From positions 310,001 through 374,000 of the forward strand of contig NW_027361767.1 in the NCBI RefSeq assembly GCF_039654945.1: a stretch of DNA of 64,000 nt, given 5' to 3'. Origin of the DNA: Dendrobates tinctorius. Lineage: Eukaryota. The notes beneath the pieces were generated by a model that saw nothing but the letters and a program-made list of their open reading frames with translations, did no database searches and had not been told where the DNA came from. Both the position numbers and the translations under genes were made by a program. Numbering within the stretch: the stretch's first letter is position 1; the number at the start of each line of letters is the position of its first letter. Positions 20,301 through 23,300 of this stretch are shown here, piece by piece.

Positions 20301-23300
20301 CGAATTGGTTCTTAATGTTGTATAAATTCTCATAGTAAGACTGAAAGAGATCCACAATTTCTTTTGGGTTGTGTGTATCCCTGCCATTTTGTTTTTTAAC
20401 AAACGGAATAAATGTAGCTGACTCACGTGGATGGAGCAGTCTGGATAATGGTCTCCCGCACTTGTCCGATAGGTCATAGAAAAAACGTTTAGATTTTTCC
20501 ATGTATTGAAAATATTTTTTATTTAACGTTTCTCTTAATTCATTTCTTTTTTTTTTGTCGTCAGCAAGCGTGGAAGCAGATAGTTTGTGTGAAATTTCAA
20601 GGGAATGAATTTGCTGTAATAATTCATCCACTTTCTGAGCTCTCTCTCTCTTTAACCTAGAACCATGCTTTATAAGAATCCCTCTCATAACGCATTTCAA
20701 AGTCTCCCATTGCAAGGGAGCTGAAGTTTGGTCAGAGGCATGTATTTGGATAAAGGAGTCAATAGACTCTTTCAGCTCTGAAGCACATAAAGTATCCTTG
20801 ATAAGGTTATCATTCAATCTCCAAGTCCAAGAACGTTGGACCAGAGATGGCAGAGATAAGGACAGAAAAATCGGAGCTTGGTCCGACCACAGAATGTCTC
20901 CGATTGTGGCCTTGGGTTGCCAGGACAAAGCATGGTGGCTCAAGAGAAAGAGGTCGATGCGGCTATAAGAATTATGTATATGAGAATAATATGTGTAATC
21001 CTTCCCCTGAGGATTCATTATCCGCCAAACATCGGTCAGTCGGAGGACATGGAGAACCCCTTTAAGAGAACGCAGCTGTCTCACCGAAACAGTTTCCCTC
21101 CCAGAAGAGTCTACCTTCGGGTTCATTGTAAAATTGAAATCTCCACCTGAGATCAGTGTACCTTCTGCGAAGGATCTATATTTTTGTAAGCCCGCAGCAT
21201 TGTTATGTCCCCCCCCCATTCAAAGTTAACGAGGGGAAAAAAAATGCAATTAAAACCGTTTTTCCTGACGACGCTGTTTGCTTCTTGTTTTTGCAGCGAA
21301 TAGAAAGTGTGCACATACCTCAAAGAGCGCGACAGTGTTATTGTTGATTGATGGAGGTCTGATCTGGGACTGTGTCGGCAGCTCCCTGTCCTCTCCTCTG
21401 GGGGTCTGTATGTAGGGGAGAGAGGACAAAAGCTAAAGGCCCCGTCTCACTAAGCAATCTCGGTAGCGAGATCGCTGCTGAGTCACAACTTTTGACAGTG
21501 ACTTTCTCCTCTCTCTGCCATTGAAAACATCTGAACGGTCATCAGGGTCCTTAGATCGGAGACCCCTCTCCTATCTATATTTCCCACCCAACCACTGTCT
21601 CCGCAACAGATCCCTTAGAAAACAAAAGGATTGGTTGCTGAAATGTAGCTGGCAATGATCTTCTCTCCCCCAACTTTGTCTGTGGAGTTTTGGGGGGTCC
21701 TGTTGGAAGATAATATGGACAATCTATGTATCATAGGAATCACTGAACTCTATATTGAGTTTTTGAGAGCTGAAACCAGATACAAGACTGTGTACCTGAG
21801 AAGGCCTATGTCCTTGTGTGTTGTCCTTTTGTTTTAGACATAAGATAAAAGTGCATCTGCATACGAAATGAATACTGGCCCTCCAACATAATAGAAGATA
21901 AGACACCATAACAAACTATTTAATTCAAAGAATGACAGAGGGCAAAGAGATACTTTCAGCACACTGTTGGGAGGATTAGGAACAGGTATGGGTGTCATTA
22001 ATGAAGCTGATATCAGTAGTTTAAGGACAAAACTTATAGACATAGCAACTAGCAACCAATAGCAAGAAAGGTTTTGAAGTACAAAGGAAAATCAATGATG
22101 TAATTAAAAATTTGCAACAAGATCATGTAAACACTTATATCGGAGTAGCAAAGATTTCAACCAACATTTTAAAGAATTAATGGAAGATACGCTGGCAAGA
22201 GGTAGGAATATGTCTTGGGCTCTAGTCTGTACACAAGGACAAATGGAATTATCAACTAACATCAAGCTAGAAGTACAAGCTATTTATGATGGACAATGGC
22301 CAAGAGCTTGTTTCTTTCTCCTAAATACCGCCAATGTATCTATAACAACACAACATTGTTATGTAATGGCATCTGTAGCTAGGGGAGCATGGTGCACTCT
22401 TAGTGGAGTTACAAAAATTAAGACAACTAACTGGGATTATGGAATTCCTACTATTCCTACTATTGCTAATCTGTCAATTGATCTGAAATACTACACTCCA
22501 GTTAATTTGCAAGCCTTAAGCCTAGGAATGGGAAAAGAACTTGGAGAATGGTTGGTTAAATTTAATAGGGATGAATATTTATTGATGAAGCTTAATCAAG
22601 AAAAGGCAAATGCCACAATTCTATTACATCATGACCAAAATGAACTAAAGGAAGTTACCCATCTGTTAGAAAATAATGCTAAGGGATACAGTGGGAGGTA
22701 ATATTTGGTCATTCAAATGCAGCAAATGGCATACTGAATTATTTAATCCACCCGATTGTTATATTGCTTATTGTTTCTGTAATTTTAATCCTTTTACAAG
22801 TCTATATGTGCTGTGTTACCCGGGGTACCTATATAGGAAGATTCAGAGCTTAACTGTGAAAGGACAAGCCAATGTCAAAATTGCATCATGTGACACAGAT
22901 GTACAAATGCCCATTGAATTAAATGAAATTGTAATATGTGAGAACTGTGGCAGAAGAGGGCACAGTAAAAAAGGTTGTTTGATTCCAAAACGAAACCTAT
23001 AGGTAATTCCTAGTAAGAAATTTGTATCCTATCACAAATTATAAAATTGTTTTCTATATGATTTTTGTGTGATGTAATTATATGTATAATATGATGTATT
23101 TTTTTTTCCATGCCTCCTTCAATGTCCTAATAGAAATCAAGCTATAGCAAAGTTATTTTTTTTTCTTCCTTGGAGTGAATGTTGGCAACTAATGAGTGAG
23201 TGTATCAAGACTCCTTGCCCTAAGAAGAATCAACTACAGTGGTGAAGAGGATTCTGGATTTGTGGCCTCCTAACAGTTGTGTGTCATTCAGACACAAAGG

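Follow-up and report, generated by a model that had tools for sequence, protein, structure and literature searches.

This locus, in a 64-kb stretch of the Dendrobates tinctorius genome (hereafter the window), raises the question of what a zinc knuckle of the Gag nucleocapsid type is doing directly downstream of the membrane anchor of a retroviral env gene. An earlier reading of the letters alone (the sequence-only reading) had placed an exact knuckle at 22937-22978, separated from the anchor by one frameshift near 22820 and followed by a polypurine tract and an 882-bp LTR, and had proposed either an Env with a nucleic-acid-binding cytoplasmic tail or a small overlapping accessory ORF. The coordinates and CX2CX4HX4C spacing of the knuckle, the frameshift between anchor and knuckle in the window copy, and the positions of the polypurine tract and LTR were all confirmed. 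The provirus extends from 21701 to 24188 and is flanked by 5-bp GGTCC target duplications; its parts, all on the plus strand, are as follows.

21696..21700, plus strand: left 5-bp target-site duplication GGTCC, identical to the five bases behind the 3' LTR
21701..21900, plus strand: 5' LTR stub, the first ~200 bp, fused by deletion straight to env
21896..23002, plus strand: broken env remnant (SU end, TM subunit and tail), homologous to annotated frog proteins P0002-P0011
21937..22002, plus strand: position of the furin-type site, then a Gly-rich putative fusion peptide (role presumed)
22692..22814, plus strand: membrane-proximal motif and the sole predicted membrane anchor, with MCC at its end
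22815..22825, plus strand: frame break separating anchor and tail, particular to the window copy (relative to 10/10 copies compared)
22826..22936, plus strand: cytoplasmic-tail linker, a YxxPhi-type YRKI followed by ~30 weakly conserved residues
22937..22978, plus strand: CX2CX4HX4C knuckle at the Env C-terminus, ligands identical in 60/60 pairwise comparisons
22979..23002, plus strand: LIPKRNL and stop, with I-P-x-R kept in 6/6 aligned lineages
23003..23008, plus strand: GTAATT, splice-donor-like, immediately 3' of the env stop codon
23296..23306, plus strand: polypurine tract
23307..24188, plus strand: 3' LTR, 882 bp, TGT...ACA
24189..24193, plus strand: right 5-bp target-site duplication GGTCC

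Much of this provirus has been lost. A deletion from the 5' LTR into env removed gag, pol and the 5' part of env, about 0.2 kb of env is absent near 22300, and additional frame breaks lie near 22440-22450 and 22690, each relative to 10/10 copies compared. The TM helix (22746-22814) falls within an ORF at 22683-22853, and the knuckle falls in an ORF of another frame (22670-23002), in which the YLYRK stretch starts at 22826 and a TAG stop occupies 23000-23002. The env remnant is 94.7-96.3% identical to another copy, and its furin-type site reads RGQR in place of the RGRR of other copies. Deleted and broken as it is, the window copy cannot make a knuckle-tailed Env. From the env stop to the polypurine tract there are about 300 nt, in which the longest stop-to-stop frame is 51 aa. 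Elsewhere in the window, the left-hand neighbor of the provirus is a broken ORF2 of LINE type on the minus strand (17999-21219), which by eye resembles endonuclease/RT; at 13242-16046 and 8237-17589, Gypsy-like pol fragments lie between direct repeats 2.5 kb apart and inside long inverted repeats that are 96-99% alike; and large tandem arrays occupy 29600-33000 (period about 35 bp) and 45600-51000 (31-37 bp), the second having one strand that is almost purely purine.

With a copy this damaged, the knuckle could in principle be a rearranged gag fragment unique to the locus, which the sequence-only reading had named as the finding that would undo its proposal, or a chance motif. It is the sole CX2CX4HX4C in six frames of the 64 kb, which is not far above the 0.16 per window expected by chance from residue frequencies (about 6e-4 per 500-codon space). 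Its Pfam scores are under the cutoff (zf-CCHC_4, E 0.0016; zf-CCHC, E 0.55), so the proof that it is a knuckle rests on conservation. Against such an origin, the knuckle recurs in almost every close copy and in distantly related frogs, a blastn comparison of the env-tail region with the family gag gave no DNA similarity (best E 0.07, over 28 nt), and the Env and Gag knuckles differ in sequence. These results refute a gag fragment or chance motif unique to the locus, to which we give almost no credence.

A DNA search of the same genome yielded 20 scored loci, namely the window, 15 close copies (92-96% identity) and 4 older ones (77-80%). The ORF of one copy matches at 100% identity a protein listed by NCBI for the poison frog Dendrobates tinctorius. 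The sequence-only reading had asked whether the knuckle is in frame with env: anchor, linker and complete CCHC motif were found in one Env ORF with a stop in 11 of the 15 close copies (11/19 of the other loci scored), and the end of the anchor and the start of the knuckle shared a frame at 15/18 resolvable loci. The four other close copies were each broken differently, L004 by a frame break, L010 by a late frameshift, L013 by a stop and a lost Cys, and L015 by more general damage. Among the older loci, L020 retains a full knuckle, L018 and L019 have decayed ones, and none was found at L017. Because other copies run through in one frame, the window frameshift is a property of that copy. The longest natural ORF read, at 638 residues, passes from SU through the cleavage site, ectodomain and anchor to the knuckle.

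Fuller copies of the family contain LTR, primer site, gag, pro-pol and env. In three copies the LTR pairs diverge by 0.9, 1.9 and 3.3%, indicating that the family was active fairly recently. At one locus (L067:9548) the primer site occurs again behind the 3' LTR, which suggests a tandem provirus. The same genome also holds a second, far larger ERV family (L058-L066 and about 120 further matches) with a related Env and many long open frames; its tail was short and without a knuckle in 9/9 copies read.

These copies bear directly on the accessory ORF, according to which the knuckle would belong to a small overlapping or spliced reading frame (Rev/Rem/Tat-like) and not to Env. Such a frame would fit the different frames of anchor and knuckle in the window copy, and SnRV sets a precedent with its spliced accessory ORFs and 3' ORF (sections of PMC12193657), but anchor and knuckle are in frame in 11/15 close copies and in six other lineages, the second frame is a product of breakage in the window copy, and a simple pattern search of env found no strong acceptor-like site. 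We consider an accessory ORF very improbable.

Contigs of 8 sequencing runs (run type not on record) were also compared with the family. In contigs from 2/8 runs, belonging to two studies of a related species, the leader is joined with GT..AG ends to a point ~8 nt upstream of the env ATG, as in the usual singly spliced env mRNA. One contig spans anchor, knuckle and stop and then enters unique host sequence (L072; G000:C45:17996890-17996913). In the genome this sequence is preceded by an AG acceptor and begins ~0.9 kb beyond one copy's 3' LTR, and in two further contigs the leader is joined to it as well. GTAA directly follows the env stop in 15/16 close copies, and this donor is apparently used in the related species. 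We infer that the contigs are spliced RNAs from an orthologous, shared insertion; read in this way, they indicate that the knuckle is transcribed as part of env. No joint between anchor and knuckle occurred among the contigs of the 8 runs, but because contigs drop rare forms this absence proves nothing, and an extra in-frame spliced product carrying the knuckle may exist.

The arrangement extends well beyond Dendrobates. A protein search with the Env gave 12 matches, and Envs ending in an in-frame knuckle were found in Hyla sarda (845 aa), Bufo bufo (853 aa) and Mantella aurantiaca (848 aa), with an in-frame knuckle also in Anomaloglossus, Xenopus laevis and one ENA protein fragment. The Env-tail part of the original proposal is supported, with one frame in most close copies and in six other frog lineages. 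The knuckle was borne by 10/15 listed cluster members in Mantella and by 1/3 in Anomaloglossus. Gene models from Dendropsophus, Aquarana, Lithobates and Ranitomeya lack it, ending or diverging earlier, and the models within the clade that end or diverge upstream of the knuckle are P0003, P0006, P0008-P0010, P0120, P0123 and 5/15 Mantella members. One Phyllobates terribilis gene model, P0012, joins env pieces to a KRAB zinc-finger gene and may be an artefact or a chimeric transcript.

An exhaustive protein search, in which relatives more than 50% identical were collapsed, returned 106 representatives. Among these distant relatives an anchor was present in 75, the median tail was 28 residues, and a CCHC motif was found in 1, the Xenopus laevis protein. 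Short tails occur, among named relatives, in chicken Ovex1 ORF3, in proteins of Bombina, Pelobates, Gastrophryne and a turtle, and in a protein of Bufonid herpesvirus 1. Pfam gave no Env family for any Env scanned, and scanning viral contigs with the frog Env alignment turned up no relative. In an Env tree of 39 rows (37 longer matches and 2 sister-family copies) and 419 columns, from which tails were removed and short fragments omitted, all knuckle-bearing lineages fell into one clade of 7 rows (support 100/99). The knuckle defines one clade of SnRV-like frog retroviruses.

Pairwise comparison of six tails gave identity at 60/60 ligand positions, a figure inflated by the choice of these tails for carrying the motif, at 56/150 other knuckle positions and at 111/388 (29%) linker positions. 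Also kept across the six were N, G-H and I-P-x-R, so that the conserved knuckle surface can be written C-x-N-C, G-H, C-[LIV]-I-P-x-R, and a YxxPhi motif was present in 5/6. Charge across lineages ranged from 0 to +3 for the knuckle and from -1 to +8 for the whole tail, the Dendrobates tail being basic (+8). The codon comparison that the sequence-only reading had suggested did not support selection, since pN/pS was 0.80 for the knuckle and C-terminus (20 codons) versus 0.21 for the anchor region, the partner in this test being the older copy L018, which is decayed and has lost the His.

The sequence-only reading had further supposed that Gag might be without a knuckle, and had suggested checking that the motif is absent from gag. 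This supposition failed: Gag has a separate knuckle, CY[RK]CG..GH....C, in 7/16 upstream stretches and 19/28 Gag homologues. Since Gag keeps its own, the Env knuckle is an addition and not a relocation. Tyr follows the first Cys in 19/19 Gag knuckles and 0/6 Env knuckles. Scoring Env-tail against Gag knuckles revealed a weak likeness (best BLOSUM sum 9), with the best-scoring being Xenopus and ranid Gags that end in C-x-[LV]-P-[KR]-[KR], so that the donor of the Env knuckle stays a proposal. Gly2, the myristoylation signal, was missing from 28/28 Gag models, and a canonical late-domain motif was found in 1/28. NCBI automatically names this Gag "posterior protein-like" in frogs from Bombina to Dendrobates. 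Taken together, and as far as sequence comparison goes, it is very probable that anchor, linker and CCHC motif form one Env frame with conserved ligands, that this arrangement belongs to one Env clade, and that it is separate from the knuckle of Gag.

The Pol of the family has YVDD, a tether plus second RNase H, and integrase, and the primer site pairs 11 contiguous nt with tRNA-Arg(CCT). SnRV likewise has a tRNA-Arg primer site. The tRNA-Arg(CCT) 3'-end pattern also occurs in a tandem array of ~1.18-kb period (G000:C271:11372389-11554896), with 259 matches genome-wide. RT identity was highest, among named viruses, to SnRV (42.8%), followed by WEHV (39.9 and 38.6%), foamy virus (38.2%) and WDSV (33.9%). 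With the Gag profile, SnRV Gag was matched at E 2e-11 in a set of 11 ORFs; with the Env profile, SnRV Env scored a modest 24 bits versus 9.6 for WDSV Env. In the RT tree the family lay inside the retroviruses proper (100/96), in a polytomy with SnRV and foamy viruses, and outside a 100/99 class I (gamma/epsilon) clade holding WDSV, WEHV and Gag_p30 elements. By these sequence comparisons the virus is SnRV-like, with Gag and Env homologous to those of SnRV and an Env that is not of gamma type. A class I (gamma/epsilon) ERV was rejected as the RT falls outside that clade. Lokiretrovirus, considered on account of the F-like Env described below, was rejected on RT, which lies inside the retrovirus clade (100/96) in a tree without a labelled Loki row.

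The Xpo protein has a leucine zipper and a CCHC motif. The likeness of Xpo/1A11/Xretpos to the frog element is in Gag, by automatic "posterior protein-like" names alone; tRNA-Arg has been suggested as the xretpos primer, in line with the tRNA-Arg(CCT) site of the frog element, but the sections of PMC4585706 describe Xpo/1A11/Xretpos without pol and mention no env, both of which the frog element has. SnRV shares with the frog element an unmyristoylated Gag with one knuckle (SnRV features from portions of PMC2717909; coiled coil by eye) and an Env tail longer than usual, ~136 residues in the record taken as SnRV (portions of PMC12193657). In contrast with the frog element, that SnRV tail has no CCHC, and the 3' ORF that SnRV has between env and LTR is missing from the frog element. 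Chicken Ovex1 ORF3 (P0136, ACR23647.1) is a homologous Env (E 3e-26) with the same membrane-proximal motif, but its 25-residue tail has no knuckle, and Ovex1, unlike the frog element, is described without a Gag zinc finger in the relevant portion of PMC2717909. Lokiretroviruses share the dual RNase H, the coiled coil before capsid and the F-like Env fold (excerpts of PMC7947760), whereas the RT and RNase H motifs of the frog element fit SnRV rows and not Loki rows by eye, and three Loki Env ends have short tails without CCHC (parts of the PMC7947760 supplement).

An AlphaFold model of the Mantella Env built from 61 sequences reached pLDDT 64.6 and pTM 0.46 (a 10-sequence run, at pLDDT 32, was unusable). 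The model (m6d53d2473108) matched pneumo-/paramyxovirus F proteins, with E 8.6e-12 for RSV F and Z 12.3 for NDV F (339 residues aligned, rmsd 11.4), compared with Z 8.1 for foamy Env; it also matched walleye virus Envs in BFVD. The Env family, which by sequence includes chicken Ovex1 ORF3 and SnRV Env, is thus predicted to have a fold like paramyxo/pneumovirus F. The layout of cleavage site and putative fusion peptide is common to chicken Ovex1 ORF3 and other relatives. In the Mantella model the membrane anchor is a helix at 757-796, and a ten-residue block in the knuckle has pLDDT 72, with the linker below 50. An ESM Atlas search with the tail gave no usable match.

The tails of retroviral Envs are known to carry short sorting motifs and to contact matrix, and the literature searches gave no report of one with a folded zinc module. 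The reading we favor for the frog Env, tentatively and with slightly less than even confidence, is that the tail knuckle would fold around zinc and, as particles assemble, dock Env on the Gag/RNA core. Given a signal-peptide-like N-terminus and a single anchor at the C-terminal end, the tail is predicted to face the cytosol and to lie within the virion, where the knuckle, from its spacing, would bind zinc and fold. As Gag has no Gly2 myristoylation signal, Env-core contacts may help to bring the core to the membrane. The conserved knuckle surface has the look of a protein-binding rather than a base-stacking one, and the Env knuckles, without Tyr and with a charge of only 0 to +3, favor a protein-binding surface. 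The knuckle itself was probably captured once by env, from a Gag-type knuckle, in an ancestral frog virus.

What makes a tether to the core preferable is the unmyristoylated Gag together with the precedent of the hantavirus Gn tail, whose zinc fingers bind nucleocapsid protein only when folded; glycoprotein-tail zinc fingers have been regarded as matrix surrogates (both from sections of PMC4014721). As in the tails of hantavirus and nairovirus Gn, the zinc motif of the frog Env lies in the inner tail of an envelope glycoprotein, behind its sole anchor in the predicted topology, and Gn is likely a functional analogue (same sections of PMC4014721). The viruses are unrelated, however, and Gn tails have dual classical beta-beta-alpha fingers whereas the frog Env has a single 14-residue Gag-type knuckle. 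A complex prediction for the N-terminal 130 residues of Phyllobates Gag, the Hyla Env tail and zinc, run without alignments, scored 0.00, which counts neither for nor against contact.

Were the tail knuckle instead to bind RNA directly, it could tether genomic RNA to Env or regulate env/genomic RNA, which is close to the nucleic-acid-binding tail first proposed. The spacing is exactly that of nucleocapsid, the best PDB match by sequence is 1nc8, a nucleocapsid knuckle peptide of 29 residues (E 0.29, not significant), the Dendrobates tail is at +8, and CCHFV Gn tail fingers bind RNA (a portion of PMC4014721). The location is in Env and not in Gag after capsid, and the aromatic residues used by Gag-type knuckles for base stacking are missing: none of the 6 Env knuckles has an aromatic after the first Cys, where Gag knuckles have the Tyr, and the flanking Phe or Trp of SnRV and family Gag knuckles is likewise absent. 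MLV NC binds RNA through two aromatics, with stacking central (parts of PMC1635273). The SnRV nucleocapsid knuckle, CRNCGKAGHMARDC, also has C-x-N-C-G and no aromatic residue between its ligands, so that the absence of aromatics does not exclude RNA binding. With neither the low knuckle charge nor that of the whole tail conserved across lineages, and with Gag retaining its own knuckle, direct RNA binding seems quite unlikely to us, and the nucleic-acid-binding part of the sequence-only reading comes out somewhat weakened on sequence grounds.

The same lack of aromatics and of conserved charge would suit a different role, in which a real Env-tail domain acts on host factors or on Env itself, through sorting, endocytosis, countering a restriction factor, or fusion control until the tail is clipped. 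In MLV, clipping of the R peptide from the tail releases Env from a fusion-inactive state. The frog knuckle is preceded by a YxxPhi motif and by a di-cysteine where the anchor ends, and only one clade acquired it, a pattern often seen with host-adaptation modules. We nevertheless regard a host-factor or Env-directed role as unlikely, since neither a cleavage site nor a host partner was identified and a fold of nucleocapsid type points more simply to the viral ribonucleoprotein as partner.

Returning to the docking of Env on the core, most Envs of the family and the larger sister family spread without a knuckle, so that assembly in general does not require one and the knuckle is an add-on. The broader proposition, that a frog clade from Xenopus to poison frogs grafted a Gag-type knuckle onto an F-like Env that grips the genomic ribonucleoprotein or capsid, we hold to be possible but doubtful. 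If true, a retrovirus Env would be doing the work of matrix or of packaging, in convergence with the Gn tails of bunyaviruses, and an Env grip on the core would account for the arrival of an unmyristoylated Gag at the membrane. The tail offers a small, soluble domain with which to address core-envelope coupling in SnRV-like retroviruses whose Gag is unmyristoylated, and it would add another independent example of viral glycoproteins with a zinc motif in the tail.

The sequence-only reading knew of no description of this arrangement, and searches of open-access literature listed none; no retrovirus was found described as having an Env with a terminal nucleocapsid-style knuckle, here seen across six named frog genera; subscription journals and repeat databases could hold a prior mention. 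Passages of PMC9040795, PMC8278194, PMC13709493 and bioRxiv 2021.11.23.469661 describe no Env-tail knuckle, and zinc fingers or knuckles reported in frog SnRV- and XEN1-like elements are not placed in Env in the portion of PMC4131045 concerned. The discoverers of Ovex1 called the identity of its ORF3 as an Env uncertain, and the present comparisons tie many unannotated vertebrate proteins to one Env family, among them Ovex1 ORF3, a toad herpesvirus protein and many frog ORFs. The herpesvirus protein, P0127 (AXF48633.1; Bufonid herpesvirus 1, 928 aa, annotated as hypothetical), belongs to this family (E 2e-50) but has no knuckle, and it nests among frog ERV Envs, which suggests capture of an env by the toad herpesvirus.
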